From NCBI GenBank assembly GCA_964602115.1, contig CAZRQN010000002.1, forward strand, positions 248-64,247: DNA of 64,000 nucleotides, written 5' to 3'. This DNA comes from an uncultured Rhodobacterales bacterium (GTDB lineage: Bacteria > Pseudomonadota > Alphaproteobacteria > Rhodobacterales > Rhodobacteraceae). The translations under genes were made by a program, and so were the position numbers. The notes under the pieces are model-generated. The model saw only the letters and a list, made by a program, of their open reading frames with translations. It was not told where the DNA came from and did not search any database. This document shows positions 7,995 through 40,585 of the stretch, in pieces; the first letter of the stretch is position 1; each line of letters begins with the position of its first letter.

Positions 7995-8006
7995 GGAGAT
8001 ACTGTA

Positions 8007-9485: not shown

Positions 9486-9500
9486 TCTCAGCCGAACGGC

Positions 9501-9516: not shown

Positions 9517-9529
9517 CCAGGGTGAACCC

Positions 9530-9919
9530 ATGCACTTTCGAACGGCGCTGGGGCGCGGACTGGAAACCGTACCGGACTGCAGGGCGGTCTGCTATGTCGA
9601 TCTGACCAGCGGGCTTGTCCTGGCCTCCAGCCTGCGATCCTACCTTCCGCAGGAGCAGCTCAATCTGGTTGCCACTGTCGGCGCGGACCTGATCGAGAGC
9701 GGAGCCAGATACGCAGCTGCCGGCCCCTCTGCGGCTGCGGGCGGGTGCGCGCCCTCGATCGTCACCGTGCACGGGAAGACCGATCTTTTCGTCTATGTGC
9801 GCCTGAAAGAGGAGGATGCGCATATGCTCTGTTACTGCTGTGGCCCCGATGCAGGGTCAGGTCAGGTCATGGATGCAGTGCTGAAAAATTGCGCCGAGGT
9901 ATCGGACCTGCTTGGGTGA
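9530..9919 (+). CDS. Small protein with a Roadblock/LC7 (MglB-like) sequence pattern (129 aa)
   Basis: LETVPDCRAVCYVDLTSGLVLASSL...LNLVATVGADLIESG...IVTVHGKTDLFVYVRLKEEDAHMLCYCCGPDAGSGQV fits the Roadblock alpha-beta-beta ... beta-beta-alpha pattern by eye. The CDS is likely real. The fold assignment is tentative. Confidence 0.55.
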   Translation: MHFRTALGRGLETVPDCRAVCYVDLTSGLVLASSLRSYLPQEQLNLVATVGADLIESGARYAAAGPSAAAGGCAPSIVTVHGKTDLFVYVRLKEEDAHMLCYCCGPDAGSGQVMDAVLKNCAEVSDLLG

Positions 9920-12001: not shown

Positions 12002-12504
12002 ACTCCGGACAATTCGCGACCGCTGCGAGGACATCAGACTTCCCGTGAAACGGTTGCCGGCGGCGCGCCGCCGCATGGCGCGTGAGTCTTTTCGACAGAC
12101 CGGCGGCATCCGGCCGATGATTCATTCGCAAACCAACTGCGATTGATCACGCGAGCGAAGGAAGAGCCAGTTGGGGACTATCCCGAAGACCCCACGAAAA
12201 TGTCTTTTCGGGGACACAAGGGAGTTCGGGACAGCAGCCCCCCAGCCGGCAAAACACGGCACATTTTCGTTGTTTTTCAAATCATTAGCGACTCTTCCCA
12301 GGGGCGGTTACCCCAGTTCCATCCAGTTTTCCCCTTTGCTGCGCCAAACTTTTGCCGCCAACGAATCGGCAGATTGTCCCCGGAATTGGTTCTGGTTTGT
12401 GAACGATCAGTCGCGGTTCTTCCGGCGTGGGGAATCTGCCTCGCATCTGCGCAAGAGGCCGGCGACGTCGTTTCCCATCCAGGATCGGACGTCGGTCGTA
12501 GGGG

Positions 12505-14721: not shown

Positions 14722-14762
14722 ACGGCCAGGAAACGGGGGCTGACAGCCGAAAGACCACTCCG

Positions 14763-15686
14763 ATGAAACCCCGTTCGGGATTTGGAAAACGAGGATTCTG
14801 GCGGGCCAAGAGGCGCCAGCCGGAGCAGATGCAGGATCAAACCGTGATGACAATGCCAGAGAAAATCGCACCGCAGTCGCAGGATGCGGCCGATCTCATC
14901 CCCCGGGACGGACGGGTGCCCGCTGAACCCGAGAAGCGTCGCATCGCATCGCCCCTTAGCCTTCTGGCGCGGCGCCTGCGGGCCTCGGTCGAGACCACCG
15001 GTGCCGGCGCACCGCCGGCCGCTGCGGTGGTCGCGCCCGAAGTCTCCGCCGCCGCCGACCCCGCGCTTGCCGATCCGGCCCCCGCCGAAACACCGGCTGC
15101 TGCGCCGGAGGCTGTCCCCGCGTCGATGGCCGGGGAGGCAGGCCTGCCGGCACCGGAGGTCGAACCGTCGATCGAGAAGGCCGCTGAAACGGCCATGCCG
15201 GAGGCGCGCCCCCTTGAGGTTCCGCCGCGCCGCGCTGCCCGGGTGAAGACCACCTTCCTGGGCTTCGAGCATTCGGACGGCCGCATCGACGACTTCTTTG
15301 CCAAGGAGCAGAACGCGGCCGGCCCGAAACCCTCGCTCTTTCCGGTGGGCTGGCTTGTGGTGGTCGCCGGTCCGGGGCGCGGGAACTGGTTCGCGCTGGC
15401 CACCGGCGTCTCGCAGATCGGGCGCGGCGACGACCAGGCCGTCCAGCTCGATTTCGGCGACAACGCCATCTCGCGCAGCAACCACGCCGCCATCGCCTAC
15501 GATGACGAGGAGAACAAATTCTACATCGGGCACGGCGGAAAGACGAACATCGTCCGCCTGAACGGGCGCCCGGTTCTGTCAACCGAAATGCTCGCGGCCG
15601 GCGATCACATCCGCATGGGCGAAACGACCCTCAAGTTCGTCCCGCTCTGCGGCGCCGAATTCCAATGGAACGCGCCAATTGACTGA
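14763..15686 (+). CDS. FHA domain-containing protein
   Basis: The C-terminal FHA pattern is GWLVVVAGPGRGNWFALATGVSQIGRGDDQAVQLDFGDNAISRSNHAAIAYDDEENKFYIGHGG..IVRLNGRPV. The N-terminal half is a Pro/Ala/Glu-rich linker. The start is uncertain, with candidates at GTG 14718, ATG 14763 and ATG 14829. Confidence 0.85.
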   Translation: MKPRSGFGKRGFWRAKRRQPEQMQDQTVMTMPEKIAPQSQDAADLIPRDGRVPAEPEKRRIASPLSLLARRLRASVETTGAGAPPAAAVVAPEVSAAADPALADPAPAETPAAAPEAVPASMAGEAGLPAPEVEPSIEKAAETAMPEARPLEVPPRRAARVKTTFLGFEHSDGRIDDFFAKEQNAAGPKPSLFPVGWLVVVAGPGRGNWFALATGVSQIGRGDDQAVQLDFGDNAISRSNHAAIAYDDEENKFYIGHGGKTNIVRLNGRPVLSTEMLAAGDHIRMGETTLKFVPLCGAEFQWNAPID

Positions 15687-15693
15687 GGATTGC

Positions 15694-16458
15694 ATGATGA
15701 TCGATGTCGCTGGCGCCGCGTCGAAGGGGCGCAGGGAATATCAGGAGGATGCCGTCGCGATCGACTTCGTCGAGGGCGACAGCCGGGGTTTCGTGGCACT
15801 GGCGGACGGCATGGGAGGCCATGAAGCGGGCGACATCGCCAGCCGCATCGTGGTCCGCAAGATGACGGAATTCCTCCGCGAACGCCTCTATCTGAAACAC
15901 ATGCAGGAAACCGCAATTCCGGACCTGCTGAAGGAAGGTGCGAAGACGGCGAATGCGGCAATCGCCGCCTATGTGACCCGAAACCGTGAAGTCGCCGGCA
16001 TGGGTGCGACACTTGTCGTGCCGGTTCTGTCGAAAGACCGACTCTACTGGCTGTCGATCGGTGACTCCCCCCTCTACCACTTCGACGGAGAGGTGCTGCG
16101 CCAGGTCAATGAGGATCACTCTCTGGGACCGCAGATCGACCTGATGGTGAGGGCAGGCGTGCTCGACCCCGAAATGGGAAAGAACCACCCCGACCGGAAT
16201 TGCCTGACCTCGGTACTCACCGGCAGCGAAATTCCCCGGGTGGATTGCGGTCGGTCGCTGAGGGTAGAGCCCGGCCATATCGTCATCGTGTCGAGCGACG
16301 GGCTGCAGTTTCTGTCGCCGGACGAAATCGAAAGCATCGTCCGCAAACACCGGGAAAGCAACGGAAGCACGCTCGCCGGCGCCCTGATGGAGGCGATCGA
16401 CCACCTGAACGATCCCGATCAGGACAATGTCTCGCTTGCTGTGATCAAGATCACATGA
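15694..16458 (+). CDS. PP2C-family Ser/Thr phosphatase
   Basis: The motifs are REYQEDAV, LADGMGGHEAGDIAS, GATLV, IGDSPLY and VSSDGL. An ATG lies 4 nt after GAGGA. The ORF opens at TTG 15679, which overlaps the FHA stop. Confidence 0.9.
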   Translation: MMIDVAGAASKGRREYQEDAVAIDFVEGDSRGFVALADGMGGHEAGDIASRIVVRKMTEFLRERLYLKHMQETAIPDLLKEGAKTANAAIAAYVTRNREVAGMGATLVVPVLSKDRLYWLSIGDSPLYHFDGEVLRQVNEDHSLGPQIDLMVRAGVLDPEMGKNHPDRNCLTSVLTGSEIPRVDCGRSLRVEPGHIVIVSSDGLQFLSPDEIESIVRKHRESNGSTLAGALMEAIDHLNDPDQDNVSLAVIKIT

Positions 16459-23421: not shown

Positions 23422-23843
23422 CACGGACCTGCGCGGGCAACTTGCGTCCGCCACCGGTACCGGCGATCATCCGGGCGGGCTTGTCGCGGAAGTGCCTGAC
23501 GGCACCTTGCTTCCACGGGGCCGCGCGGCGGCAGGCCAAGCGCCAAGCCTGCCCCGGCTCCGCCGTCCCCTGTGTCGAAGGCAGCCGCATGCCCGGACCG
23601 GGCCGGGTGCGAAAGGCGCCTTCGCAAGGGCCGGACGCGGAGGAAAAGGCCGGAGCGGTCCCGGCTCTGAACACTTCGCTGCGAAGAGGGAAAGATCCGG
23701 GAGCCGCAGTGCCCGCAGGCTTGGTCGGTGTCGTGGTCTTGTCCGGGTCTTCCCGGTGGCGGTATGTGACCGGCTTCCACAGCCCGCTTCGGCCTCTCGG
23801 CCCCGCAGACGCGCGCATCACAATTCCACAACACGGCTTGGCA

Positions 23844-23857
23844 TTGACCTCCGTCAA
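23844..23857. promoter_or_regulatory. FNR/ANR-type box TTGACCTCCGTCAA
   Basis: It is a perfect TTGAC-N4-GTCAA palindrome in non-coding DNA, 358 nt upstream of the elaB-like ATG. Confidence 0.55.
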
Positions 23858-24214
23858 TGACGTTTGGTCCCGACGCCCCGCATCATCGCATGGATGAACG
23901 GACGGAGAGAACCTTGGACCGCGCGCTTCGACTGGACGGCCTGATCCCGGTGCCGGGGCTGTGGGGGTTTGCAGGCATGGCCGGCGCAGCCGGGTCCGCC
24001 GCCAGCGAAAGCATCTCCCCGGTCCCGTCAAGCGGCGGGAGGCATTGCACCGATAGGGCGCGCCAAGCGGCCGCCCGGAAGAGGGTGGCCCGTTCCGGCC
24101 AGAACCGCCGGACCTGCGAGCGCCCGCGCCGTCACCCGATGCTTCCGGCAGCGCAAGGCGCTGATGCCTTCCCGGCGACGGGCGGCGCCAACCCTGGACC
24201 AAACGAGGTGTCAC

Positions 24215-24556
24215 ATGGCTGATACTGCGACAGAACCCGAAGCCGCCGCCGGGACGAAGGCGGACGTCGGGGCGCAACTTGACGACATCCGGCGCGATAT
24301 CGCGGCGCTCGCCAAATCGCTGGGCGCCTTCGGCCGCAGCCAGTCTGCGTCCTGGGGCGACGAGGCGCGCCTGCTTTCGCAAGAGGCGCTGGCCGAATTG
24401 AAGAGGTTGCTGCATGAAGCCCAGCAGCAGCTCGGCACCGCCGAAAGGAAAGCGGAAAGAAGCGTTCACGAACACCCCGGGCAATGGCTCGGTGGCGTGC
24501 TCGGGCTTCTGGGCCTCGGCGTCCTTTTCGGCATGATCTTCGGACGCAGGAACTGA
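24215..24556 (+). CDS. DUF883/ElaB-YqjD family tail-anchored stress protein
   Basis: An ATG lies after GAGGTG. The product is 113 aa, with a helical N-terminal part and a C-terminal anchor HPGQWLGGVLGLLGLGVLFGMIFGRRN, typical of ElaB/YqjD. Confidence 0.75.
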   Translation: MADTATEPEAAAGTKADVGAQLDDIRRDIAALAKSLGAFGRSQSASWGDEARLLSQEALAELKRLLHEAQQQLGTAERKAERSVHEHPGQWLGGVLGLLGLGVLFGMIFGRRN

Positions 24557-24566
24557 GCTCCGCACA

Positions 24567-24959
24567 ATGGGACGCTTCCTGAGTTCACGGCTGCGGGCCG
24601 CTTTCGGGACGGTGGCGCTCGTCACCGTCGCTGCAATCCTGTCGCTCATTGCCCTTGGTCTTCTGGTTGCTGCCTTTGCGGTCTGGCTCGCGAGCCATAT
24701 CGGCACAATCCCTGCCCTGCTGGCGCTCGGGTCCGGATGCCTGGCGCTTGCCGCCGTGCTGGTCCTGATCCGGGCGGCGCTTGTCCGTCAGCAAAGGCGT
24801 GCCGGCCAGCGCGCGGCAGAGGCGGCGGCCCTCAGGATCGCGTTTGACCTCATACCCCGGCTCGGCGGCCGCCGGGCGACGCTTCTGGCCGCCTCTGTTC
24901 TCCTTGGCCTCGCCGCCCTGCTTCTCGGCGCGCCTCCGCCACCGGCGAAGGACGAGTAG
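24567..24959 (+). CDS. YqjE-like / phage-holin-family small membrane protein
   Basis: The product is 130 aa with three hydrophobic segments. It lies 10 nt downstream of the elaB-like gene, matching the yqjD-yqjE-type arrangement. Confidence 0.55.
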   Translation: MGRFLSSRLRAAFGTVALVTVAAILSLIALGLLVAAFAVWLASHIGTIPALLALGSGCLALAAVLVLIRAALVRQQRRAGQRAAEAAALRIAFDLIPRLGGRRATLLAASVLLGLAALLLGAPPPPAKDE

Positions 24960-25274
24960 GCGGCCCCACCCGGAAAAACCGGGCTCGACCGTTCATTGAT
25001 GACGCGGTCCGCGTCGCAGGAATGAACGCCAGTTCCAGAGCGGCCAATTCCTGCGGTCAAAGCCCGCAGCCGTCGGCCCTGCGGCATCGCCGCGCGGCGG
25101 CGCGTTGGCCGCACCTGCGATCCATCGGCGCTTCGGCATCCAATCCTAGAAACGGACCGCCCGGGCAAGGACCTCCATTCGCCGACAACCGCCAGTTCGT
25201 CGGGCGCCCGCTCGGCTTGACCAAGGGCGGCGGGTGCCTTGAGATCCAACGGGAAATGGCGGCCGGCCGGCCTG

Positions 25275-25727
25275 CTAATCCCAACCCAGTTCCGTTCGCA
25301 ACATGGCGGGCAGAGCGCTTTCATCAATGCCGGCGAAATTCTTTGCGATTTCACCACTGATGATATGGCGGAGACTCCCGGGCAATTCCTCGCGCCAAAG
25401 TCCCAGGGTACGCGGCGCCGAAACGACGACCAGACGCTCGAACTCCCCTGCGTGGAGATGCGCCTCGACCAGAGCGATAACCTGCCGCAGGAACTCGATC
25501 TCATCCTGTCGCAGCGGATCGCTGCCATATTCCATCGCCGACCGCATTCGCTTGCTGCCGGAGGAAAAGCTGCGTCCCGGCTTGTCGGACATGATGTCAC
25601 GCAATTTGTGGCTTGGCGCCCGCAACACCAGCTCGGGACGGGCGGGCTCGCCGGGCGCGGGCAGGCCCCGGAGAAGCCGGGCCCGTGTCGCGCTCAGAAC
25701 CAGAATCCATTCGGTCGGTCTGCTCAT
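25275..25727 (-). CDS. Host-attachment protein family (baeRF, release-factor-like fold)
   Basis: The sequence is MSRPTEWILVLSATRARLL...HKLRDIMSDKPGRSFSS....RSAMEYGSDP...EFLRQVIALVE.....FERLVVVSAPRTLGLWREELP. The ATG at 25727 lies 6 nt after AGGTG. The ORF opens at 25766. Confidence 0.7.
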   Translation of the reverse strand: MSRPTEWILVLSATRARLLRGLPAPGEPARPELVLRAPSHKLRDIMSDKPGRSFSSGSKRMRSAMEYGSDPLRQDEIEFLRQVIALVEAHLHAGEFERLVVVSAPRTLGLWREELPGSLRHIISGEIAKNFAGIDESALPAMLRTELGWD

Positions 25728-25772
25728 GGTCATCACCTGACCACTTGATCGCCCGACGGCGAGCACCTGGCA

Positions 25773-25786
25773 TTGACCATGGTCAA
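25773..25786. promoter_or_regulatory. FNR/ANR-type box TTGACCATGGTCAA
   Basis: It is a perfect palindrome centred about 52 nt upstream of the ATG at 25727 of the host-attachment-family gene. Confidence 0.7.
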
Positions 25787-25829
25787 CGATGCGGCAGAAG
25801 CGCAGTGCCGGCCGGCGATCAAAGCGACC

Positions 25830-26597
25830 CTAGCGTGCGTTGCGCAATGCGGCCCGGCGCAGGGGCTGCGCCAGATCCAGCCCCGAAGCTTCGGCCAGAG
25901 CATCGAGATCGCCGATCTCGAACCGGTCGGTGTCAAGGATGCGGATCAACCCTTCGCGCGCCAGTCCGTGAATGGCGCGGCTGAGCGTTTCGGACCGCAC
26001 GCCCAGACAGCGGGCAAAGTCGCCGCGGCCCATCGGCAGGCGCACCGTGACCTCCCCGGCCGTCACGCTGCCCGCAGACCGGTGCTGCCGGTGGGCGAGA
26101 ATCACCAGAAACGCCGCCACGCGTTCGGTGACGCGGGTGCCGTTCAGCAGCAACACCCATTCGCGTGCAGCATCAAGTTCGTCCAGAAGCGAGACGAGGA
26201 ACATTCGCTCCAGTTCCGGCGCCTCGCGCAGGACCGCCTCGAAGGGCGCGCGCTCGAAGCACAACAGGCGGCAGTCGCTGAGCGCCTCAAGCCGATGGTT
26301 GAAGGGCCCGTCGAAGATCCGGCCGAACATGTCGGACGGAAGCAGCAGGCCGATGATGTGTTCGCGCCCGTCAGGCAGGGTCTTGGCCATGCCGAGCGTT
26401 CCGTCGAGCACATAGCCGACCTGGGCGCTGGTTCCCCCGTCGGGAACCACGATTTCGCCGCGCGAAGCCTGGCGCAGACCTGCGGCGCCAGCGAGCCGCG
26501 CCTGAAGCGCGTGGGCAAGCCGATCCAGTGCCGACACCAGAGGCGCATGATCAGCGGCGAGAAAGCCGCGCAGTTCTGCAAACGAAATCGCGCTCAT
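25830..26597 (-). CDS. Crp/Fnr family transcriptional regulator without an N-terminal Cys cluster
   Basis: It has a cNMP-binding-like beta-roll. The C-terminal HTH is RGDFARCLGVRSETLSRAIHGLAREGLI, with the E--SR recognition motif of the FNR class. Confidence 0.85.
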   Translation of the reverse strand: MSAISFAELRGFLAADHAPLVSALDRLAHALQARLAGAAGLRQASRGEIVVPDGGTSAQVGYVLDGTLGMAKTLPDGREHIIGLLLPSDMFGRIFDGPFNHRLEALSDCRLLCFERAPFEAVLREAPELERMFLVSLLDELDAAREWVLLLNGTRVTERVAAFLVILAHRQHRSAGSVTAGEVTVRLPMGRGDFARCLGVRSETLSRAIHGLAREGLIRILDTDRFEIGDLDALAEASGLDLAQPLRRAALRNAR

Positions 26598-26673
26598 TGC
26601 CGCCGCCTATTGCAGAGTCGCGGGATGCAGCCTGACATGTTTCGCCGCGCTGCCAAATGGAAAGCAGCCCGGT

Positions 26674-26687
26674 TTGACCTCAGTCAA
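26674..26687. promoter_or_regulatory. FNR/ANR-type box TTGACCTCAGTCAA shared by two divergent Crp/Fnr genes
   Basis: It is a perfect palindrome lying between the start at 26597 (minus strand) and the start at 26742 (plus strand). Confidence 0.75.
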
Positions 26688-26741
26688 AGCACCCTGCTGC
26701 AAGATCGCTTTCCATCGGGCGACAGTCGCCATGGGGCGCGC

Positions 26742-27539
26742 ATGGACATTTCATCCGGCCTTGTCTTGCACGAAGGGGAGCGGTCCCTGCCAGGGTTGGC
26801 GGCGCGGGCTGCCTCCGAGCCCCCCGCCTGCGCGGCTTGCCATGCACGCAGTGCGGGGTTCTGCCGAAGCCTTTGCGATCCGGCGCTCGGGATCATTGCC
26901 AAACGCTCGGTCCGCATCAGTCTCCCTGCCAATCAGGCGGTTTTTGACCATGGCGGCGGCGCGGACTTCGGCATCCTTGTCCGAGGGTATCTGCGGCGCG
27001 TGCATTACACCGCCGAGGGCCGCCGCCAGATTGTGAGCCTGACGGCCCCGGGCGAGACTTTCGCACTTCAGGATACCGAGGGTCAGGGTGTGCTGGAGAC
27101 GGCAACCAAGGCTCAGATCTGCCGCATTCAGGCATCGAACTATGCCCAGGCCTTGCGCGACAGCCGCCAGTTCCGGCGCCTCATCTTCCGCCAGGCGCAA
27201 GCGAAGTTCGACCGGCTGTGCGATCTCACCTGGGCGCTTGGCGCGCTCGGTCCCGAAGAGCGCCTTGCAGGCTTTCTGGTCCGATCCATCGCCTTCATGC
27301 CGTGGAGGCCACTGCCAGCCGGCGGCGGGATCCTGACCATCGAACTCGGGCGGACGGATATTGCCGATCTCCTGGGCACGACGCTTGAATCGATCAGCCG
27401 CATCACCCAGCGCTTCCACCGCGAGGGGGTGATCCGCATCCTTGATCCGCGCCACTTCGAGATCGCCGACCCGGCGCGCCTGGCCCGGCTGGGAGCGATT
27501 TCCGAGATGCCCGGGCCAAGTGCCACCAGAGCCGCTTGA
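26742..27539 (+). CDS. FNR-like regulator with an N-terminal cysteine cluster (candidate O2-sensing Fe-S type)
   Basis: The N-terminus contains PPACAACHARSAGFCRSLC, and there is a central Cys in KAQICRIQ. The HTH is RTDIADLLGTTLESISRITQRFHREGVI (E--SR motif). The 5' two thirds of the listed 588-aa ORF are antisense to the neighbouring gene and were rejected. Confidence 0.8.
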   Translation: MDISSGLVLHEGERSLPGLAARAASEPPACAACHARSAGFCRSLCDPALGIIAKRSVRISLPANQAVFDHGGGADFGILVRGYLRRVHYTAEGRRQIVSLTAPGETFALQDTEGQGVLETATKAQICRIQASNYAQALRDSRQFRRLIFRQAQAKFDRLCDLTWALGALGPEERLAGFLVRSIAFMPWRPLPAGGGILTIELGRTDIADLLGTTLESISRITQRFHREGVIRILDPRHFEIADPARLARLGAISEMPGPSATRAA

Positions 27540-27780
27540 CCTGGCCGGCAAGGGGCAAGGCGCCTTGCTGACGATGACTGCGGAAGGCCGGTTCACCCTC
27601 CCGGCCGCTGCTGCCCACCGATTCGGACGGTCCCGGTCAGCCGGTGTCGGGGGAGATGACCGAAATCAATGAAATGCGCCGCAAGCGGGAACAATTGGAA
27701 CAGTCTGACCAAGGGAAAGGTCTCGGCCCCGTCCCCCAGGGGGCCGATCCGTCGAGCAGCCCCATCCTTTCCGTCAGGCC

Positions 27781-27822
27781 GATCACCGGAGCGGGGATGG
27801 TTGCCTCACCGCTCCGGTGATC
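27781..27822. repeat. Perfect 14-bp inverted repeat (hairpin) GATCACCGGAGCGG-N14-CCGCTCCGGTGATC
   Basis: Read directly from the sequence. It lies in the 465-bp non-coding gap, 184 nt downstream of the ftsH-like stop. No U-tract is present on either strand. Confidence 0.5.
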
Positions 27823-28005
27823 CCGAACTTCCCTCGTGGCCAGGTCCGTTCCCACGATCGCAGTCGATGCCCGGCCGCCCGAGGTCTCGAAAATGGGGCC
27901 CTCCATCGGGGCGGTCGCGAGCTGCACGGGAACCCGCCAAGGGAGATTCCGGACGCGGACAGACCGCCTTCGACGAACCCGGCGAGAGCCGCCAACGGAC
28001 GCACG

Positions 28006-29808
<1,803 letters not shown>

Positions 29809-29870
29809 CCCTGCCCCTGTTCCGCTGGCGGTGCCCTCTGCCCTGCTGGCCCATGGCGATGCGGGCGGCA

Positions 29871-29884
29871 TTGATCCGGGTCAA
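29871..29884. promoter_or_regulatory. FNR/ANR-type box TTGATCCGGGTCAA
   Basis: It matches TTGAT-N4-GTCAA perfectly and is centred about 70 nt upstream of the ftsH-like ATG at 29808. Confidence 0.65.
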
Positions 29885-30107
29885 TCCGGCGCCTGAACGC
29901 TGGCCCGCAAGACCGGCCCTCGCCCCATCGGCCGGGGGGCCGGACTGGGGACGGCCGCTCAACTTGCCGCCTCCCGACTCATGCCAATCCGACCTGTGAC
30001 GACCGCGCGACCTGCCTTACCCAGCTCCCTATCGTCGATGGTCAGCCGGACCTCCGGGCCAGATCGACTCACCCTGCGCCGATCCACCGGATGCCGGGGC
30101 TGAACTC

Positions 30108-31298
30108 CTAGCTGCCGGCCGCCGCCTCGACCCGCACGCCATCGGCGATCAGGTCGTTGGGGTGCAGGATCACGACCTCGCCGGGCTCCAGCCCTTCGGC
30201 CACGGCGGCGTAGTCGCTGTTGCGTTCGCCGAGCGCGATCCGTCGCAGGCTGGCGCGGCCATCCACGACAACGAAGGTCGCCCAGTCGCTGCCCGCCCGG
30301 AACAACGCCCCGACGGGGATGGCGGTCAGTCCCTGACCTTCCCAGACCTCGATCCGCGCCGTGATCCGGTAGCCATCGCCCAGTTCGGCCCAGGCCGCAG
30401 GATCGCCGTCAAGGCCGAGAACCACGCGGACCCGTTGCTCCTCGATCCCCAGCGCCGAGACGCGGGTGCTGGCCGATGGATCGATGCGCAGGACCCGGGC
30501 CGGGATCGGCGCTCCGCCCCAGCCATTGATCACGGCCTCGGCGCCGGGCGCGATGCGGACCGCATCGGAAGACAGGAGGTCAACGTCGATTTCCATGTCA
30601 CCGGGGTCGCCGATTTCCAGAAGCGGCTGACCGGGCTGGACCACCTGTTCGCTTTCCGCAAGCACCCGAAGCACCTGGCCCGTCGCAGGCGCCCTGAGAT
30701 CGGTGCAACAGATGCCTCCCTCGCCCAGGTCCTCCTCCGACAGCGCGGCGCGCGCGCTGTCGCGCTCGCGTTCGCGCACCGCGAGGTTCGCCCGGGCACT
30801 CGCAAGCGCTGCCTCGGCGGTCGCAAGGACCAGTTGCGCCATGTCGTAGTCGCGTGCCGAAATCGCGTCGCGCTCGCGGAGCGAAGCTGCCCGCGTCGCA
30901 TCGCCCTGGCGGAAGCCAAGCTCGGCCAGGGCGCGCGCCACTTCGGCCTTGCTCAGCTCGACCGCCGCCTCTGCCGCTTCAACGCTCGCTTCGGCGACTT
31001 GCCGACTACGCGCGTCGAGAAGCGCCGGCGGGACCGGGCGGATCCGGGCGACGACGGTTTCGCCTGCCACTACCTGGTCGCCAGCATGCAGTTCGAGCCG
31101 CGACATGCGTCCGGCGATCGAGGCCGATACGGTGAAGACCTCGCGGATACGTGCCGTGCCCTCCTCCTCGACATGAACCGCGATGGTGCGCCGGTCGATC
31201 GCCTCCGTCTCTACGGCGACCGGTCGCGGCCAGAAGGCCCACAGGAATGCGCCAAGGACGGCGAGCGCGACAGACAGGATCAGCAGGCGGCGGATCAT
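30108..31298 (-). CDS. HlyD/MacA-family periplasmic adaptor subunit
   Basis: It has an N-terminal TM anchor, a long coiled-coil region (AEASVEAAEAAVELSKAEVARALAEL...) and barrel-sandwich/beta-barrel segments. The ATG lies 1 nt after the permease stop. Confidence 0.85.
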   Translation of the reverse strand: MIRRLLILSVALAVLGAFLWAFWPRPVAVETEAIDRRTIAVHVEEEGTARIREVFTVSASIAGRMSRLELHAGDQVVAGETVVARIRPVPPALLDARSRQVAEASVEAAEAAVELSKAEVARALAELGFRQGDATRAASLRERDAISARDYDMAQLVLATAEAALASARANLAVRERERDSARAALSEEDLGEGGICCTDLRAPATGQVLRVLAESEQVVQPGQPLLEIGDPGDMEIDVDLLSSDAVRIAPGAEAVINGWGGAPIPARVLRIDPSASTRVSALGIEEQRVRVVLGLDGDPAAWAELGDGYRITARIEVWEGQGLTAIPVGALFRAGSDWATFVVVDGRASLRRIALGERNSDYAAVAEGLEPGEVVILHPNDLIADGVRVEAAAGS

Positions 31299-31299
31299 C

Positions 31300-33675
31300 T
31301 CATTCCCTCGTCTTCAGGACCTCGATCATGTCGAGCCGGTTGATGCGCCCCCGGATCAGCAGCGCCGAGCCGAAGGCCGACACGAGCACGATGAGGCTCG
31401 CATTCGCATAGACGTCGCGCGTGATGATCAGGGGTACCCGATACAGTTCGGAGCTGAAGGCGGCGAGCACCGCCTGGGCGAAGCCATAGCCGATCAGCCA
31501 GCCGAGCGGCTGGGCAATGAGGACGACGGCGGCCAGTTCGGCATAGAGGATTCGCGCCACCTCGGCCCGGGTGAAGCCCAGAACGCGAAGGCTGGCCAGC
31601 TCGCGGCCCTGTTCGGACAGCACGATGCGGGCAAAGTTATAGACCACGCCCACCGCGATGATCGCCCCGAAGGCGACATAGACCACCGTCATGATCTGCA
31701 CGTTCTCCGCGAGAGTCGTGCGGAACTTGGCCAGCGAAAGCCGCATCAGTGCCAGGAACCCGGTCGTCGGCGTCTTGCGGATTTCGGCGTAGAACGCCGA
31801 CTGCTGCCTGGGGTCGAGCGCCAGATGAACGCCGGAAATCCGCCCTCCGGTGCCCGTCATCCGGTCAAGCGCAGAAAAGCCTGCATAGGCACCAAGCCCG
31901 AGATAGCCGAGGCTGATGCCGCTGACCGGCGTCCGAAATTGCCTCTGGTCGCCTTCCAGAAGGGTGACATCCACCTCGTCGCCAACCCGGACCTTCAGGA
32001 TGCCGGCCAAAGCGTCGGACAGGACCACGCCATCCGCAGGCATGGCCATCGGCCGTTCCTCGCGGTCAAGGACGCGCGACAGGTCGGTGCCCCCGTCCGG
32101 CAGACCCTGCAGGGCAAGGCGGCGCGAGGCCGTGCCGTTCGAGATGCGCACGGCGACGGTGCGGTAGGGTTCGGCGGACAGTACGCCGGGCAGACGTGCG
32201 GCCGCGTAGAGGGCAGCCATCGGCCGCTCCCCGGTAAAGGTGATCGTGGCGTCCTGTCGCGCCGTGCGGAAGAAGACGATATCGATCATCCTGTCGATCG
32301 ACCCTTCGCTCCATTGCGATCCGACCAGAACGCCCACCGCAAATGCGACCCCCAGGATCGACGTTCCGGTGCGGATGGGCCAGCGCAGCAAATGGCGCGC
32401 GACCATCACGCCCGACTGGCGGATGAAGCGTGCCGCCTCGAACAGGTCGCCCAGGAGGCGCCGGTAGCGCAGGGGCGCCGGCGGTTGCATCGCGACCGCC
32501 GGCGGCAGCCAGGCGACGGAGCGGACCGCATAGGCCGCGCCCGCGACGGCCGAGCCGAGCGTGATCAGCGCGGCGATGGCATAGACCGACGGATCGCGGC
32601 TGAAGATGAGGAACGGAAAGTGGTAGAACCGGGCATAAAGCGCCGCGAGCCCCGCGCCAAGCCAGGCGCCCGACACGCTCCCGATGGCGACGCCGATTAC
32701 TGCGATGGCCAGCACGAATTCGACATAGTGCTCCGCAATGGCCCAGGGCCCGTAGCCGATCGCCTTCAGAAGGCCGATCTGCTCGCGCTCCAGCGCGACA
32801 AGACGCGACAGGGTCATGTTGACCAGAAAGGCCGCCACCAGCAGGAAGATCGGCGGCAGCACCCGGCTCATGCCGCGCAATTGCTGAAGCTCGGCGTCGA
32901 GGAAGGCGTGGCTGAGCTGGTCCTTGCGGCCATAGGCCCCGGTGCCGCCATAGGGCGCAAGCAGGCGGTCAAGCTCGGCAATGACGGCCGCCTCCGACGC
33001 GCCGGGCGCCAGCACCAGCGAGACGCTCGAAAAGGCGCCGTCGAGATCAAAGGCCGCCGCCAGCGCCTTGTCCGACATCCAGACGATACCGAACCGCCGT
33101 TCGTCGGGCATCGCATCGCCGGGACCAAGCGCGTAGATGAACTCGGGCGACAGCGCGATCCCCGTCACCAGCAGCCTTCGCTCGCGTCCGTTCATCAGGA
33201 CCGAGAATCCTGCGCCCGGCACCAGACCATGAGCGGTGGCGAAGCCCTCCGAGATGACCGCCTCGGAAGCCGCCTGCGGGTCGGGCAGGCGACCCGCGCG
33301 CAGGTAGAGATGGTTCAGCGCGCCCGGGTCGTCGCCCGGAGAGGAGATCAGCATGGCATTGCCCGGCTCCTCCATCCCCTCGATCCGGGTCAGCGCCAGG
33401 CGGGCGATGCGGGTCTGGACCGCTAGCACCCCGTCGATGGTGGCGATGCGGGCGGCCAGCGCGCGGGGCGCACGGGTCACCTCGGCGAAGACGTCGCCAA
33501 ACCGGCTTTCGGCATAATAGGCCGCGCGGGTGCGGTCGAGCGATGCATGGGCACCCACGCCCAGGACCAGGGTCGCGACGCCGGCCGCCATGACCAGCGC
33601 GATGGCCAGCGCCTGCGCCCAAAGCCTGCGCAGGTCGCGCAGGAGCTTGATGCGAAGGGGCGACAGCGCAGTCAC
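31300..33675 (-). CDS. ABC transporter permease with duplicated FtsX-like domains (791 aa)
   Basis: The GTG at 33675 overlaps the ATPase stop as GTGA. The N-terminus is [32 protein letters not shown]. There are two FtsX-type four-TM modules with large periplasmic loops. The ORF extension up to 34443 is out of register with the ATPase gene and was rejected. Confidence 0.8.
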
Positions 33676-34388
33676 CAGCTCACCTCCGCCGGGGCCTTGC
33701 GCGCGGCGTTGACCTCGTCCGACAGGATCGTCCCGTTGCCGAAGCGCACGACCCGGTGGGCGATCTGGCGGATCGCAACGTTGTGGGTGATGACCAGCGT
33801 CGTCGCCCCGATCGCCCTGTTCACATCGGTCAGCGCCTCCAGAACCTTGATGCCGGTATGGGAATCGAGCGCCCCGGTCGGCTCGTCGCACAGAAGCACC
33901 TCGGGGTTCTTGGCGATGGCGCGCGCGATCGCCACACGCTGCTGCTCGCCTCCGGAAAGCTGCGCTGGGAAATGGTCCATCCGTTCGGCCAGCCCGACCA
34001 TGGCCAGCGCCTCCTCGGCCCTCATCGGCCGCCGGGCGATCTCGGTCACCAGCCGCACATTCTCGCGTGCGGTGAGGCTCGGGACGAGATTGTAGAACTG
34101 GAAAACAAAGCCCACATGGTCCCGCCGGTAGCGGGTGAGCTCGGAATCGCCGGCCCTGGTCAGTTCCTGATCCATGAACCAGACGCTGCCCGCAGTCGCC
34201 GTATCGAGCCCGCCGACGATATTGAGGAAGGTGGACTTGCCCGACCCCGAAGGGCCGAGGATCACCACGAACTCTCCCGCCCGCGCCGCAAAATCGACAC
34301 CGCGCAAAGCCTGCACCTCGACCTCGCCCGAACGGTAGGTCTTTGACAGGCCGCTCACGCGGAAGACTGGCTGATCGGTGTCGTTCAT
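33672..34388 (-). CDS. ABC transporter ATP-binding protein (MacB/LolD-like)
   Basis: Walker A is GPSGSGKST, the signature is [14 protein letters not shown] and Walker B is [11 protein letters not shown]. The ATG at 34388 follows GGAGGG. Confidence 0.9.
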
Positions 34389-34442
34389 CCCGGGGCGCCC
34401 TCCGCTCGGGCCCCTGATTGCAGCGTCCCGGTCCAGTTCGCA

Positions 34443-34456
34443 TTGATTCCGGTCAA
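34443..34456. promoter_or_regulatory. FNR/ANR-type box TTGATTCCGGTCAA
   Basis: It is a perfect match centred about 62 nt upstream of the ABC ATPase ATG at 34388 (minus strand). Confidence 0.65.
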
Positions 34457-34558
34457 ATCTGGCTGGCGGGGCCGTTTCGGGATTGGAAAGCCGGCCGCGA
34501 ACCTTCCGGCGCAAGGAAAGGGATGGCGGACGCCGGCAAATTCCCTGGGCGCTGCCCA

Positions 34559-34572
34559 TTGACCAAAATCAA
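34559..34572. promoter_or_regulatory. FNR/ANR-type box TTGACCAAAATCAA
   Basis: It is a perfect match lying 282 nt upstream of the arcD ATG. ANR-dependent arcDABC promoters are established in Pseudomonas aeruginosa. Confidence 0.65.
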
Positions 34573-34853: not shown

Positions 34854-36323
34854 ATGAGCACCACGCATCCTTTTCCCGGTTCCGCCGCCAGCGCGCAGTC
34901 AGACGATCGGCTCGGGCTTTGGTCGCTGATTGCCCTTGTCGTCGGATCCATGATCGGGGGCGGCGTCTTCAGCCTGCCGCAGAACATGGCCAAGGGGGCG
35001 TCGCCCGGGGCGGTGATGCTTGGCTGGCTGATCAGTGGCGTGGGCATCCTGGCGCTCGCGCTGGTCTATCAGGGGCTTTCGATGCGCAAGCCAGCGCTGG
35101 ACGCCGGGCCCTATGCCTATGCCCGCGCCGGGTTCGGCGATTTCATCGGCTTTAACAGCGCCTGGGGCTACTGGCTCAGCGCCTGGATCGGCAACGTTTC
35201 CTATGCCGTCCTGATCTTCGGCGCGCTCAGCTATTTTGTCCCGGCTTTCGGCGCCGAGGGGAACACCTGGCAGGCGATCCTCGGCGCGTCGATCTGCCTC
35301 TGGGCGATCCATGCGCTGGTGCTGGTCGGCGTCCGTCAGGCGGCCATCGTCAATGTCGTGACGACCATCGCCAAGCTCGCGCCGATCTTCATCTTCATCG
35401 TTGCGCTGCTGGCGGTCTTCCACCTGCCGACCTTCAAGCTCGATCTCCGGGGCGCGGGGGTGCCGGACCTGGGCGACGTGATGACCCAGGTGAAAAGCAC
35501 GATGCTGGTCACGCTCTGGGTGTTCATCGGAATCGAGGGGGCGAGCGTCGTCTCGGCCCGCGCCGCGCGGCGCGACGACATCGGGCGGGCGACGATCCTT
35601 GGATTTCTCGTCTCCCTGGCCGTCTATCTTCTGGTCTCGCTTCTGTCTTTCGGGATCATGACCCAGCCCGAACTGGCCGCCCTTCCGGGTACGGCCTCCA
35701 TGGCCGATGTGCTGGAAAAGGTCGTCGGGCCCTGGGGGTCGGTGCTGGTGCGGATCGGCCTCGTCGTCTCGGTCGCAGGAGCGTTCCTCAGCTGGACGCT
35801 CTTTGCCGCCGAAATCCCCTACCGCGCCGCCAGCGAGGGGATGCTGCCCGACATCTTCGCCTCCGAGAACGGCAAGGGCTCGCCCTCGGGCGCGCTCTGG
35901 ATCACCAACATTCTCGTCCAGTTCTTCCTGATCCTGACGCTCTACGCCAACTCGACCTATCTCGCGCTCTTCTACATCGCCTCGACGGCGATCCTCGTGC
36001 CCTATGTCCTTTCGGGCGCCTATGCGGTCAAACTGGCGCTCAGCGGCGAGGGCTATCGAGCGGGGGAAGCGCGGGGGCGCGACATGGTCGTGGGCGCGCT
36101 TGCCACGGTCTATGGAGCCTGGCTCGTCTATGCCGCAGGCCCGAATTACCTCCTGATGTGCGCGATCCTCTATGCGCTGGGGATCCCCTTCTATTGGTGG
36201 GCGCGCCAGGAACGCGGCGAGCGGGCCTTTACCGGGGTCGAGGGCCTGATCGCCCTGGCCATCGTGATCGCGGCAGGGATCGCATCCTATCTGATGTGGA
36301 CCGGCGCAATCAGTGCCCTGTGA
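34854..36323 (+). CDS. arcD: Arginine/ornithine antiporter
   Basis: The product is a 489-aa APC-superfamily permease. The N-terminus LGLWSLIALVVGSMIGGGVFSLPQNMA is typical of ArcD. It is the first gene of an arc operon. Confidence 0.85.
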   Translation: MSTTHPFPGSAASAQSDDRLGLWSLIALVVGSMIGGGVFSLPQNMAKGASPGAVMLGWLISGVGILALALVYQGLSMRKPALDAGPYAYARAGFGDFIGFNSAWGYWLSAWIGNVSYAVLIFGALSYFVPAFGAEGNTWQAILGASICLWAIHALVLVGVRQAAIVNVVTTIAKLAPIFIFIVALLAVFHLPTFKLDLRGAGVPDLGDVMTQVKSTMLVTLWVFIGIEGASVVSARAARRDDIGRATILGFLVSLAVYLLVSLLSFGIMTQPELAALPGTASMADVLEKVVGPWGSVLVRIGLVVSVAGAFLSWTLFAAEIPYRAASEGMLPDIFASENGKGSPSGALWITNILVQFFLILTLYANSTYLALFYIASTAILVPYVLSGAYAVKLALSGEGYRAGEARGRDMVVGALATVYGAWLVYAAGPNYLLMCAILYALGIPFYWWARQERGERAFTGVEGLIALAIVIAAGIASYLMWTGAISAL

Positions 36324-36335
36324 CCGGAGCTGCCC

Positions 36336-37556
36336 ATGACCCTCGGCGTTCACTCGGAAACCGGACGGCTCAGGCAGGTCATCGTCTGCCGCCCTGGCCT
36401 CGCCCACCGCCGCCTCACGCCCTCGAACTGTCAGGAACTGCTCTTTGACGATGTCTTCTGGGTCAAGCAGGCACAGAAGGACCATGACGTCTTCGCGCGT
36501 GTGATGCGCGACGAAGGGGTTGAGGTTCTGGACGTGAACCACCTTCTCGCCGAGGTGATGGAGCGGCCCGAGGGCCGCGCCTGGGTGCTCGACCACCGGA
36601 TCACGCCGGACGATGTGGGCGTCGGCATGGGGGCGGAGCTGCGGGCCTGGCTGGAGGAATTGCCCGGGGCAAGGCTGGCCGAATTCCTCCTGGGCGGACT
36701 GGCCGCCGACGATCTGCCGTTCCGGCCGAGCGATCTCTTCGGGAGTTACCTCGGCCATCACGGCTTCATCCTGCCGCCGCTGCCCAATGCATTGTTCACC
36801 CGGGACTATTCCTCCTGGATCTACGGCGGGGTGACGGTGAACCCAATGTTCTGGCCCGCGCGCCGGCCCGAGACCCTGCTCGTCACCGCGATCTACAAGT
36901 TCCACCCGAAATTCGCGGGCCAGGTGACGATCCATTGGGGCGACCCGCTGCGGGACCACGGGCTGGCCACCCTGGAAGGCGGCGACGTGATGCCGGTGGG
37001 CAACCGCACGGTTCTGGTCGGCATGGGCGAGCGCTCCTCTCCGCAAGCGATCGGTCAGTTGGCCGTGGCGCTTTTCGCCAGGAATGTGGTGGACCGCGTG
37101 CTCGCCTTCCGCATCCCGGCCTCCCGCGCGGCGATGCATCTCGACACGGTCTTCACCCTCTGCGGCGGCGATGTGGTGACGACCTTCCGGGAGGTCGCCG
37201 AGGCGCTCGTCTGCTACGACATCCGCCCCGGCGAGGGGAAAGCGCCCCTGTCCTTCCGCCGCGACCCGAGGCCGATCTTCGAGATCGTGGCCGAGGTCCT
37301 GGGCTACCGGCGGCTCCAGATCGTCCCGACCGGCGGGACGACCGAGGAGGAGCGGGCCCGCGAGCAGTGGAACGACGGCAACAACGTACTCGCGCTGCGG
37401 CCCGGGGTGGTGGTCGCCTATGACCGCAACGACGACACCAACGCCGCGCTCAGGGCCGCCGGGATCGAGGTTCTGACCATCCCGGGCGCCGAACTGGGCC
37501 GGGGCCGGGGCGGCGGCCATTGCATGAGCTGCCCGACGATCCGCGATCCACTCTGA
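36336..37556 (+). CDS. arcA: Arginine deiminase
   Basis: The sequence starts [35 protein letters not shown] and ends with the C-terminal catalytic [11 protein letters not shown] motif. The length is 406 aa. Confidence 0.9.
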
Positions 37557-37573
37557 CCGGACAGGACCCCGCC

Positions 37574-38575
37574 ATGGCCTTCAACCTGAAGAACCGGAGC
37601 CTCCTTTCCCTGCGCGACTATACCCCGCGCGAGATCGGCTTCCTCCTGAAGCTTGCCGCCGATCTCAAGGCCGCGAAATATGCCGGGACCGAGGTTCCGA
37701 AACTGCGCGGCAAGGATATTGCCCTGATCTTCGAGAAGGATTCGACCCGGACAAGGGTCGGGTTCGAGGTTGCGGCCTATGACCAGGGCGCGCGGGTCAC
37801 CTATCTGGGGCCGACCGGCAGCCATATCGGCCACAAGGAGACGGTCAAGGACACCGCCCGAGTGCTGGGGCGCATCTACGATGCCATCGAATATCGCGGC
37901 TTCGGGCAGGAGGTGGTGGAGGAACTGGCGAAAAATGCTGGCGTGCCGGTCTATAACGGCCTGACGGATCAATTCCACCCGACGCAGATTCTCGCCGATT
38001 TCCTGACCATGCAGGAGCACAGCGAGAAACCCCTGCGCGAGATTGCCTTTGTCTTCGTAGGTGACGCCGCCAACAACATGGGTGACAGCCTGCTGATCGG
38101 CGGGGCGAAGATGGGCATGGATGTCCGGCTCTGTGCCCCCGGGGCCTGCTGGCCGCACCAGTCAATCCGGGACGAGGCGGCGGCGGTCGCCCGCGAAACC
38201 GGCGCACGGATCATGGTCAGCGATGACATCGCCAAGGCAGTCGCGGGCGTCGATTTCGTCTATACTGATGTCTGGCTTTCCATGGGCGAGCCCGCAGAGA
38301 AGTGGGCCGAACGCATCCGCCTGCTGATGCCCTATCAGGTCAACGCCGCGATGATGGCCGGGACAGGCAACCCGCGCGTGAAGTTCATGCATTGCCTGCC
38401 CGCCTTCCATAATGCCGGGACGACCGTCGGGGCCGAGATCAAGGAGAAATTCGGCATCGAAGCGATGGAGGTGACCGAGGAAGTCTTCGAAAGCCCCGCC
38501 TCGATCGTCTTCGATCAGGCCGAGAACCGGCTCCATACGATCAAGGCGGTTCTGGTCGCCACGCTGGGGGCCTGA
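37574..38575 (+). CDS. arcB: Ornithine carbamoyltransferase (catabolic by operon context)
   Basis: The N-terminus is [32 protein letters not shown]. The carbamoyl-phosphate motif STRTR and the motif HCLPAFH are present. Confidence 0.9.
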
Positions 38576-38576
38576 G

Positions 38577-39500
38577 GTGCTGATCGTCGCGGCCCTGGGC
38601 GGCAATGCCCTTCTGCGGCGCGGCCAGCCGCTGACGGCCGAACTTCAGCGCGCCAATGTCCGGGTCGCGGCCCAGGCCCTGGCGCATATCGTCCGGGCCG
38701 GGCACCGGCTGGTCGTGACCCATGGCAACGGCCCGCAGGTCGGGCTTCTGGCGCTGCAGGGAGCGGCCTACCGGCCGGACGAGGCCTATCCGCTGGACGT
38801 GCTCGGTGCCGAGACCGAGGGCATGATCGGCTATATGATCGAGCAGGAACTGGAGAATGTCCTGGCTCATCGCCAACCGGTCGCGACGCTCCTGACCCAG
38901 GTGGTGGTTGACGCCCGCGACCCGGCCTTTGCCAAACCGACCAAATTCGTCGGCCCGGTCTATGACCGGCCGGAGGCCGAATCCCGGGCAAGGGCGGCCG
39001 GCTGGAACATTGCCCCGGATGGCGACAAGTGGCGCCGGGTCGTGCCTTCGCCCAAACCCATCGAAATTCCTGACCTGCGGGTGCTGCGGCTGCTGCTTGA
39101 CGCGGGCGTGACCGTCATCTGCGCCGGCGGAGGCGGCATCCCGGTGCTGCGCAGCCCCGATGGCAGTCTGATCGGGGTCGAGGCGGTGATCGACAAGGAC
39201 GCGGCCAGCGCGTTGCTGGCGGCGGAACTTGATGCAGATGCGCTCCTCCTCCTGACGGATGTCGATGGCGTCTATGACGACTGGGGAACCCGGCGGCAGC
39301 GACGCCTGGACAGGCTCTCCCGGGCAGAGGCCCAAGCCCGGACCTTTCCGGCCGGGTCGATGGGACCAAAGGTCGAGGCTGCGGTGGCCTTTGCGGAAAG
39401 GACCGGAAAGGTCGCGGGCATCGGCAGGCTTGACCAGGCGCTGGCGATCCTGAGCGGAACCTCCGGCACGCTTGTCGGAGACCTGCGTCCGACGACCTAG
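38577..39500 (+). CDS. arcC: Carbamate kinase
   Basis: A GTG start lies 1 nt after the arcB stop. The N-terminus is [16 protein letters not shown]....[11 protein letters not shown], and CAGGGGIPV is also present. The length is 307 aa. Confidence 0.9.
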
Positions 39501-40019: not shown

Positions 40020-40585
40020 TGGAACCGCACCCGGTTTGCCTGAGGCTGATTTCGGTTGAATGCGCGGCGAAGGGTCCAGGTTCCAGAGCGGCGTGGAAGT
40101 TGGTCTCGGCTTGTGACGGCGGGATGTTCCGGATTGGCTTGAGGAGACGGCGGTTGGTGAACCAGTCCACCCATTCCGGCGTTCGTATTCGACCGCTTCG
40201 AAGCTGCTCCACGGTCCAGGCTGGATGACCCCCGCCACCGCAAAACATGCTGATGCGCTGCGAAGGAACTCGTTCGCCTTGCGCAGCTCATGGTTCTCCC
40301 GCTCTGGCGCATCCATCCTCTCGGCTACATGGGTCGGAACGCCTGGTCGCTGACCGCTGCCGACGTCAGCCTTTTGGACCCGGTCGTTCAGCGCCGGCGG
40401 CATGCAGCCAATCCTCGTCGAGATCGACCTGACCGCCTGCCAGCGGGACGCGTGCTGGCCCTCGGTGTGGAGAACCAACCGCACCGCACGCCCGCGCACT
40501 TCAGGGAGAAAACTTGTTCGTGGTCTTGCTGATGATGCTCATCCCACTCAAGGGTCTTAGCCTCCGGCAAACCCGGCGCGGTTCA
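40020..40585 (-). mobile_element. IS3-family internal-deletion derivative (about 566 bp) with both terminal inverted repeats
   Basis: The IRs TGAACCGCGCCGGGTTTGCCGGAGGCT (revcomp of ..40585) and GGAACCGCACCCGGTTTGCCTGAGGCT (40021..) differ at 4 of about 27 positions. The orfA-like frame is MSIISKTTNKFSP(frameshift)EVRGRAVRLVL...ERENHELRKANEFLRSASACFA. It is fused to the orfB C-terminal scrap FEAVEY..EWVDWFTNRRLLKPIRNIPPSQAE. Confidence 0.7.

Follow-up and report, generated by a model that had tools for sequence, protein, structure and literature searches.

What does a run of perfect FNR-type sites mean in an uncharacterised stretch of accessory DNA, and which proteins would act on them? The question is raised by a stretch of 64 kilobases (kb) from an uncultured Rhodobacterales bacterium (contig CAZRQN010000002.1, positions 248 to 64,247), called the window here, in which six such boxes surround two divergent Crp/Fnr regulator genes, crp1 and crp2. 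The sequence-only reading of this DNA had proposed that the boxes mark a compact low-oxygen regulon. Four lines of evidence support this view: the presence of cognate regulators, the conservation of the boxes upstream of orthologous genes, the agreement of the boxes with the sites mapped for FnrL by chromatin immunoprecipitation (PMC2908626), and the microoxic induction of host-attachment genes in B. diazoefficiens (PMC6515984). We therefore regard the boxes, with a probability of roughly 0.85, as putative operators of the FNR/FixK class that together with the local Crp1 and Crp2 would form a self-contained low-oxygen island of ~16 kb (23.8-39.5 kb of the window) in an alphaproteobacterial accessory region.

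Six boxes and their placement between genes

The operator of the FNR/FixK/ANR class is a 14-base-pair (bp) dyad, TTGAT-N4-ATCAA, the alphaproteobacterial form of which is TTGAY-N4-RTCAA. An exact search for this form (TTGAYNNNNRTCAA) on both strands of the window gave six matches, at positions 23844, 25773, 26674, 29871, 34443 and 34559, and none elsewhere in the 64 kb, in full agreement with the sequence-only reading. The six boxes span 10.7 kb. When the pattern was relaxed to TTGA-N6-TCAA only the same six sites were recovered, compared with 0.45 expected, and when one mismatch was tolerated the window held 13 sites for an expectation of 3.2. Under equal base use one match is expected per 262,144 positions, as had been calculated before, which corresponds to 0.24 per window; the actual base composition lowers this figure to 0.05. 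Moreover, 100 dinucleotide-preserving shuffles of the window contained 0.14 matches on average and at most one.

We then looked at the position of the boxes relative to the genes. The gene map was built from codon-usage scoring together with Pfam and NCBIfam matches; gene calling from the G+C content of third codon positions only was dropped as too unspecific in DNA of 65% G+C. On this map 13.8% of the window (8.8 kb) is intergenic, and all six boxes fall in non-coding DNA, so that the earlier claim that none lies within a called coding sequence also holds for the rebuilt map. Base composition predicts 0.007 boxes in the intergenic DNA, and the probability that six random sites would all be intergenic is 7e-6. 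Intergenic DNA contains six perfect sites, one site with one mismatch and one with two mismatches; the corresponding numbers for coding DNA are 0, 6 and 57. Such a near all-or-none distribution would be expected from selection on functional sites.

Four boxes lie close to the genes that they face. Box 2 (TTGACCATGGTCAA, positions 25773 to 25786) is centred 52.5 nucleotides (nt) upstream of the ATG of a host-attachment gene (hostAtt), and box 3 (TTGACCTCAGTCAA, positions 26674 to 26687) is common to crp1 and crp2, with distances of 83.5 and 61.5 nt, respectively. The centre of box 4 (TTGATCCGGGTCAA, positions 29871 to 29884) is 69.5 nt upstream of the ATG of an ftsH paralog, and that of box 5 (TTGATTCCGGTCAA, positions 34443 to 34456) is 61.5 nt upstream of the ATG of a gene for the ATPase of an ATP-binding cassette (ABC) exporter. 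The two others are more remote. Box 6 (TTGACCAAAATCAA, positions 34559 to 34572), which reads TTGAC-N4-ATCAA, is centred 288.5 nt upstream of the arcD ATG and lies 116 bp from box 5, both being located in the 466-nt divergent gap between the ABC ATPase gene and arcD. Box 1 (TTGACCTCCGTCAA, positions 23844 to 23857) sits in 793 nt of DNA judged non-coding from the flat GC-by-codon-position profile of its open reading frames (ORFs); its centre is 364.5 nt upstream of the start of an ElaB-like gene and its target is uncertain. Shine-Dalgarno-like sequences precede every start used for these distances. The sequence-only reading had counted five boxes as lying 50-85 nt upstream of a start codon; the range stands, at 52.5-83.5 nt, and the count becomes four boxes serving five genes.

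The position of these four boxes is compatible with a class II arrangement, in which the box would be centred near -41.5, while boxes 1 and 6 would need long leaders. A consensus scan of the whole region found no sigma-70 promoter with -35 and -10 sequences, which fits activator-dependent promoters, and no -10 element could be assigned with confidence. In five of the six boxes (1, 2, 4, 5 and 6) a CA precedes the box on the plus strand (CATTGA...), regardless of the orientation of the target gene. Beyond the 14-mer and this 5' CA the boxes have nothing in common, and an origin from a repeat or a mobile element was rejected since no extended repeat takes them in. In boxes 1 and 6 a TG also follows directly, extending the dyad to 18 bp.

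A candidate seventh site with one mismatch (ATGACCGAAATCAA, positions 27656 to 27669) lies between the convergent crp2 and ftsH genes, which are 466 nt apart. It is the sole one-mismatch site in intergenic DNA and has no credible ORF adjoining it. The chance expectation in the intergenic DNA of the island is ~0.1, and the site is a weak candidate.

Two local regulators and the boxes of other genomes

The crp1 gene (positions 25830 to 26597, minus strand) and the crp2 gene (positions 26742 to 27539, plus strand) each encode a protein with an HTH_Crp_2 and a cNMP-binding-type domain according to Pfam. Both carry the E--SR recognition helix that the sequence-only reading had noted, ETLSR in Crp1 and ESISR in Crp2, the latter aligning with ETISR of A. 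fischeri FNR. Regulators cognate to the boxes are thus encoded next to them.

The two proteins differ in their cysteines. The N-terminus of Crp2 reads C-AA-C-HARSAGF-C-RSL-C (CX2CX7CX3C, residues 30-45), with cysteines C30, C33 and C41 plus C45; the C-x2-C-x7-C spacing is that of bona fide FnrL from related loci (C-GD-C-PIRHRAV-C), and Cys128 aligns with FNR Cys122. Crp2 therefore has the ligands of an iron-sulphur (Fe-S) FNR, that is, the N-terminal motif and a central cysteine equivalent to Cys122. In the Crp2 clade these two elements are either both present (in the window and at loci L001 and L007) or both absent (L002, L003 and L006), a co-variation that argues for one functional unit, the Fe-S site, and Crp2 is a candidate Fe-S oxygen sensor. 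Crp1 is FnrL-like and devoid of the N-terminal cysteine motif. The NCBIfam models closest to the two regulators are FnrL and FixK; the best model for Crp1 is FnrL, with 151 bits for a cutoff of 300 and an alignment that starts only at model position 39, so that Crp1 falls outside the FnrL equivalog by its score as well as by its missing N-terminal cysteines. Because both regulators score below the equivalog cutoffs, we classify them as FNR-class proteins distinct from the FnrL and FixK orthologs, Crp2 being apparently FNR-like in mechanism and not an FnrL ortholog.

The crp2 gene call has the backing of Pfam and of orthologs with 37-46% identity. On an identical Logan contig (L081) the public gene call at 1602-2402, equivalent to window positions 26751 to 27596 on the minus strand, is an antisense shadow ORF of 266 amino acids (aa) without a Pfam match, and protein databases built on that assembly probably lack Crp2.

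We also examined whether orthologs of the island genes have boxes of their own. The divergent crp2-crp1 pair with its shared box and a nearby hostAtt gene recurs at loci L001, L002 and L006; L001, the closest relative of the module (58% identity for Crp1), has five boxes in 4.4 kb. The box is found an estimated 66.5-89.5 nt upstream of the hostAtt relatives, compared with 52.5 nt here. At most canonical fnrL loci a box lies just upstream of the regulator gene (58 of the 84 Crp1-like matches). In the case of ftsH, the orthologs on Rhizobium and Chelativorans plasmids (67-70% identity) are preceded by TTGATCGGCGTCAA and TTGACCGATATCAA, the centres of which lie 64.5 and 70.5 nt from the annotated ATG, to be compared with 69.5 nt here, and the Limimaricola loci L026 and L043 also have a box upstream of ftsH. 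For the exporter operon, a box is present 82.5 nt upstream at locus L020, in Bradyrhizobium BTAi1, where the operon is longer, 59.5 nt ahead of its first gene, and, for the ortholog on S. meliloti pSymA (45% identity), 162.5 nt before the hsp20 gene that heads the operon. Finally, arc operons have an upstream box at 150.5 nt in Agrobacterium, at 244.5 nt in Shinella (one position off the Y/R rule) and at ~305 nt from arcA on pSymA, which indicates that the long distance of box 6 is typical for arc operons in this group. Upstream of ftsH, exporter, hostAtt and arc orthologs the box has thus been kept in distant alphaproteobacteria, at similar distances.

At locus L001 (6985-13400) the neighbours of the boxes encode a CBS-domain protein, Hsp20, a DnaJ-like protein and a MerR-like protein, a gene set close to the bll4644-blr4659 microoxia cluster of B. 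diazoefficiens.

A putative low-oxygen island and its alternatives

From these features we infer that the boxes are bound, that oxygen is the signal and that the genes are activated and not repressed, as well as the promoter geometry; the island might work as follows. As oxygen becomes scarce, Crp2, or else a housekeeping FnrL/FixK from another part of the genome, would assemble an Fe-S cluster on CX2CX7C and Cys128 and dimerise. The dimer would use the E--SR helix to bind TTGAC-N4-GTCAA, with the centre near -41.5 in promoters devoid of a -35 element, and at the shared box 3 it would activate crp2 itself as well as the divergent crp1. Crp1, as a cysteine-less FnrL derivative, may amplify the response or add a second signal, in the manner of the Anr-Dnr, FnrL-Dnr and FixJ-FixK cascades. 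The remaining boxes would switch on five units, namely the arc operon, the FtsH paralog, the host-attachment/baeRF-like protein, the ElaB-like/YqjE-like pair and the ABC-FtsX-HlyD exporter, all driven by Crp2, possibly jointly with the housekeeping FnrL/FixK, and Crp1 together. The arginine deiminase operon would supply ATP by substrate-level phosphorylation without respiration, FtsH would ensure protein quality control, and the baeRF-like and ElaB-like proteins would act in translation and membrane stress, the ElaB-like/YqjE-like pair being linked to proteostasis and translation stress.

How does this arrangement compare with described systems? In Pseudomonas aeruginosa ANR controls arcDABC, and the ANR-dependent promoter of that operon is said to go back to Galimand et al. 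in 1991, Gamper et al. in 1991 and Winteler and Haas in 1996. The island shares with it the order arcD-arcA-arcB-arcC, the upstream FNR-class box and the gain of ATP without respiration; it differs in its alphaproteobacterial host, in a TTGAC-N4-ATCAA box 288.5 nt from the arcD ATG and in having FnrL/FixK-like regulators instead of ANR.

On S. meliloti pSymA, discrete regions concentrate FixK-type motifs and Crp/Fnr genes, one of them with an arc operon, an HlyD gene and a Crp/Fnr gene (PMC5596199). The regions SMa0631-SMa0697 and SMa1077-SMa1297 resemble the island by a local enrichment of TTGAT-N4-ATCAA-type sites, extra Crp/Fnr genes, the arc operon and the HlyD gene, and there too the exporter ortholog and arcABC both have upstream boxes. 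In contrast, the pSymA regulators all lack the cysteine motif and depend on FixLJ, whereas Crp2 has a motif of the FnrL type, and the island is more compact, with a higher density of boxes (six in 10.7 kb versus seven in the 50 kb of pSymA sampled). Bradyrhizobium sp. BTAi1 offers an orthologous exporter operon on pBBta01 and boxes as dense as those found here, five in 8.6 kb; these five TTGAT-N6-TCAA boxes (L090, 3748-12398) surround the exporter operon and small cytochrome c and hypothetical genes. In B. diazoefficiens the host-attachment proteins bll5315 and bll4645 are induced by microoxia, and one of the two is listed with a '+' that probably denotes FixK2 dependence or a FixK2 box (PMC6515984), a likeness with the FixK2 regulon; however, FixK2 is under the control of FixLJ and of Cys183 oxidation, and inspection of the alignment reveals no equivalent cysteine in Crp1.

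The sites of R. sphaeroides FnrL mapped by chromatin immunoprecipitation on microarrays have the form TTGAY-N4-RTCAA, and the 'extended' FnrL regulon differs among species (PMC2908626). D. shibae possesses FnrL and three cysteine-less Dnr regulators (DnrD/E/F) that act on indistinguishable sites, and single boxes serve divergent promoters (PMC5398030). The island has in common with these systems the box sequences, a putatively autoregulatory box before the regulator gene, single boxes for divergent promoters and a candidate sensor with a cysteine-less partner. Unlike them, its regulators stay below the FnrL equivalog score and the window is devoid of cco, hem and denitrification genes, and its predicted targets (the ftsH paralog, the exporter, the host-attachment gene and arc) are part of the 'extended' regulon, which is variable. 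As described in PMC6127331, where the work of Sass et al. is presented, B. cenocepacia has a compact low-oxygen-activated (lxa) locus. By that description it is likewise an accessory cluster linked to an Anr/FixK-like regulator, rich in stress-survival functions and induced at low oxygen, induction being only predicted for the island; it differs by its betaproteobacterial host, by 50 genes dominated by universal stress proteins and by a regulator encoded elsewhere.

Four observations weigh against a self-contained low-oxygen island. The cNMP_binding match of Crp2 is below the Pfam gathering score (21.6 for 27.5). Its scores are also far below the equivalog cutoffs, with 44.5 bits for FnrL (NF045989) and 59.4 for FixK, both cutoffs being 300. 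Boxes 1 and 6 are distant from any start codon (364.5 and 288.5 nt) and the former has no clear target; and the ftsH ortholog of Paracoccus versutus (61% identity) has no perfect box.

The alternative that survives best is that the boxes are real FNR-class sites whose main regulator is a housekeeping FnrL or FixK encoded outside the window, Crp1 and Crp2 being mere members of the regulon whose roles are different or redundant. The sites recognised by FNR, FixK and Dnr proteins of the E--SR type indeed cannot be told apart (PMC5398030, PMC2908626), most related genomes have a canonical fnrL preceded by a box of its own, and both local regulators diverge from the curated FnrL and FixK models. 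However, two cognate regulators with a common box stand at the centre of the cluster, the crp2-crp1-hostAtt module is kept along with its boxes, and Crp2 has the full set of cysteine ligands. We consider this alternative possible, if clearly the less probable one; it overlaps with a locally regulated island and does not exclude it.

A further reading would make the island a self-sufficient cassette for survival in hypoxia that moves horizontally, with the Crp2 sensor and Crp1 acting independently of the housekeeping FnrL/FixK of the host. Its core output would be the control of translation and proteostasis, through the release-factor-like 'host attachment' protein, the plasmid-type FtsH paralog and the ElaB-like protein; box 1 and the near-box at 27656 would be responsible for FNR-dependent RNAs, non-coding or antisense, that have escaped annotation, and the crp2-crp1-hostAtt module of L001, L002 and L006 would be a distinct, undescribed regulatory unit. 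Taken jointly, these proposals are doubtful.

Still less likely is a response to nitric oxide or another redox signal through Crp1 acting as a cysteine-less Dnr/NnrR-like regulator, oxygen not being the direct signal. If the absence of an Fe-S motif from Crp1 and the use of an identical box by Dnr-type regulators (PMC5398030) speak for it, the Pfam-based gene map of the window shows no denitrification genes, Crp1 is much nearer to FnrL than to Dnr (the match to Dnr in PDB reaches only E=1.4e-5) and Crp2 has the oxygen-sensor motif. As for chance, the base composition of a slightly more A+T-rich intergenic DNA acting on a short motif, or a by-product of repeated elements, these are already refuted by the intergenic count and the shuffles, by the lack of an extended repeat around the boxes and by the maintenance of box position upstream of orthologs in other genera.

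With FNR/FixK-class operators and local regulators as the preferred reading, the arrangement of the boxes is real and highly non-random, yet it is an ordinary further example of a well-documented type of low-oxygen island; BTAi1 has an equal box density and pSymA the same gene themes. The box enrichment is not unusual for such islands; the motif, the regulation of arc and motif-dense islands such as those of S. meliloti pSymA are already known from work on FnrL, FixK and ANR, and the island does not challenge current understanding. It does give a confident regulatory annotation to an uncharacterised alphaproteobacterial accessory region, and cross-genome support to the FtsH paralog of the plasmid type, the ABC-FtsX-HlyD exporter and the host-attachment/baeRF-like protein as members of the extended FNR/FixK regulon, all three of which have been little studied. 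Paired regulators, one with and one without the cysteine motif, also make a small and tractable system for the division of work among FNR paralogs on one operator.

Genes of the island, candidate RNAs and flanks

To the left of box 1 the LysR-type genes end at 23421. On its right, the plus strand encodes an ElaB/DUF883-like tail-anchored protein of 113 aa (positions 24215 to 24556), recognised by sequence features only and without a significant Pfam match, and a small membrane protein of 130 aa (positions 24567 to 24959), YqjE-like by inspection, the gene of which is probably co-transcribed with the former. Both genes are also called on the identical Logan contig. The host-attachment protein (150 aa, positions 25275 to 25727, minus strand) belongs to the Host_attach / baeRF family 12 (PF10116, E=6.6e-26; PF18856, E=5.2e-23).

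The FtsH paralog (600 aa, positions 28006 to 29808, minus strand; TIGR01241, 713 bits) shows 59-70% identity to plasmid-borne FtsH of Rhizobium, Chelativorans, Sinorhizobium and Paracoccus and of a Klebsiella pneumoniae plasmid. The last of these is, we assume, reminiscent of the FtsH proteins of heat-resistance or stress-tolerance islands.

The exporter operon, on the minus strand, has the MacAB/DevCBA-like composition of ATPase, FtsX permease and HlyD adaptor, in genes that overlap or abut: the ATPase gene comes first (positions 33672 to 34388, PF00005), followed by an FtsX-type permease of 791 aa (positions 31300 to 33675, PF02687) and an HlyD-type periplasmic adaptor (positions 30108 to 31298; TIGR01730, 109.7 bits for a cutoff of 94.9). 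The equivalog cutoffs of DevA (203 for 295.8), MacB and LolD were all unreached.

The arginine deiminase pathway operon arcDABC (positions 34854 to 39500, plus strand) comprises arcD for the arginine-ornithine antiporter (34854-36323; TIGR03810, 597 bits for a cutoff of 591), arcA for arginine deiminase (36336-37556; PF02274, 388 bits), arcB for ornithine carbamoyltransferase (37574-38575; OTCace_N and OTCace) and arcC for carbamate kinase (38577-39500; AA_kinase), the content and order of a pathway operon of this kind, and shows 74-85% identity to the annotated arcDABC of Rhizobiaceae plasmids. Directly right of arcC, at the edge of the cluster, lies an internally deleted remnant of an IS3-family element (positions 40022 to 40585), two pieces of which share 73-80% identity with IS3 copies carried by plasmids of Paracoccus, Cereibacter and Pacificitalea; to judge from these matches, it suggests that the island is part of the accessory or mobile DNA of a Rhodobacterales-like host.

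The gaps that hold boxes 1 and 6 and the near-box were also searched for RNA genes. Rfam gave no match at E<=1 or at the gathering score for the box 1 gap, the arcD leader and the 27656 gap, and no tRNA was found in them either. The ORFs of the arcD leader, like those of the box 1 gap, are non-coding by their flat profile. Neither the predicted leaders nor a 172-nt candidate minus-strand RNA that ends at a terminator-like hairpin showed a signal of structure when folded (z of -1.4, +1.3 and -0.2). A minus-strand promoter at the 27656 near-box would yield an RNA antisense to the 3' end of crp2. A terminator-like hairpin (GCCGGGACCGCTCCGGC) followed by CTTTTCC is present on the minus strand at 23649-23665, ~160 nt downstream of the start predicted for a leftward box 1; firing in this direction, box 1 and the hairpin would delimit a candidate small RNA of ~170 nt, the fold z of which is only -1.4. 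Terminator-like hairpins are no commoner in the region than by chance.

The flanks of the window contain transporters, LysR regulators, dynamin-like GTPases, a Ser/Thr kinase with FHA and PP2C proteins, and opine-like catabolic enzymes, and none of these flanking genes is oxygen-related or has a box. At 5970-16458 lies a signalling cluster with no apparent relation to the boxes; it starts with a tandem pair of dynamin-like GTPases, and two proteins without a Pfam match, a Ser/Thr protein kinase, an FHA-domain protein and a PP2C phosphatase follow. On the other side, a minus-strand catabolic cluster (55458-61870) comprises genes for a class-V aminotransferase, an ornithine cyclodeaminase, an amidase, a DAO-type oxidoreductase and a Pyr_redox_2/SO_alpha_A3 oxidoreductase. 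Amid it, on the plus strand, there is a small RidA-like gene, and an oligopeptide-type ABC importer lies alongside (49816-55246); the whole cluster is reminiscent of opine catabolism on Rhizobiaceae plasmids.

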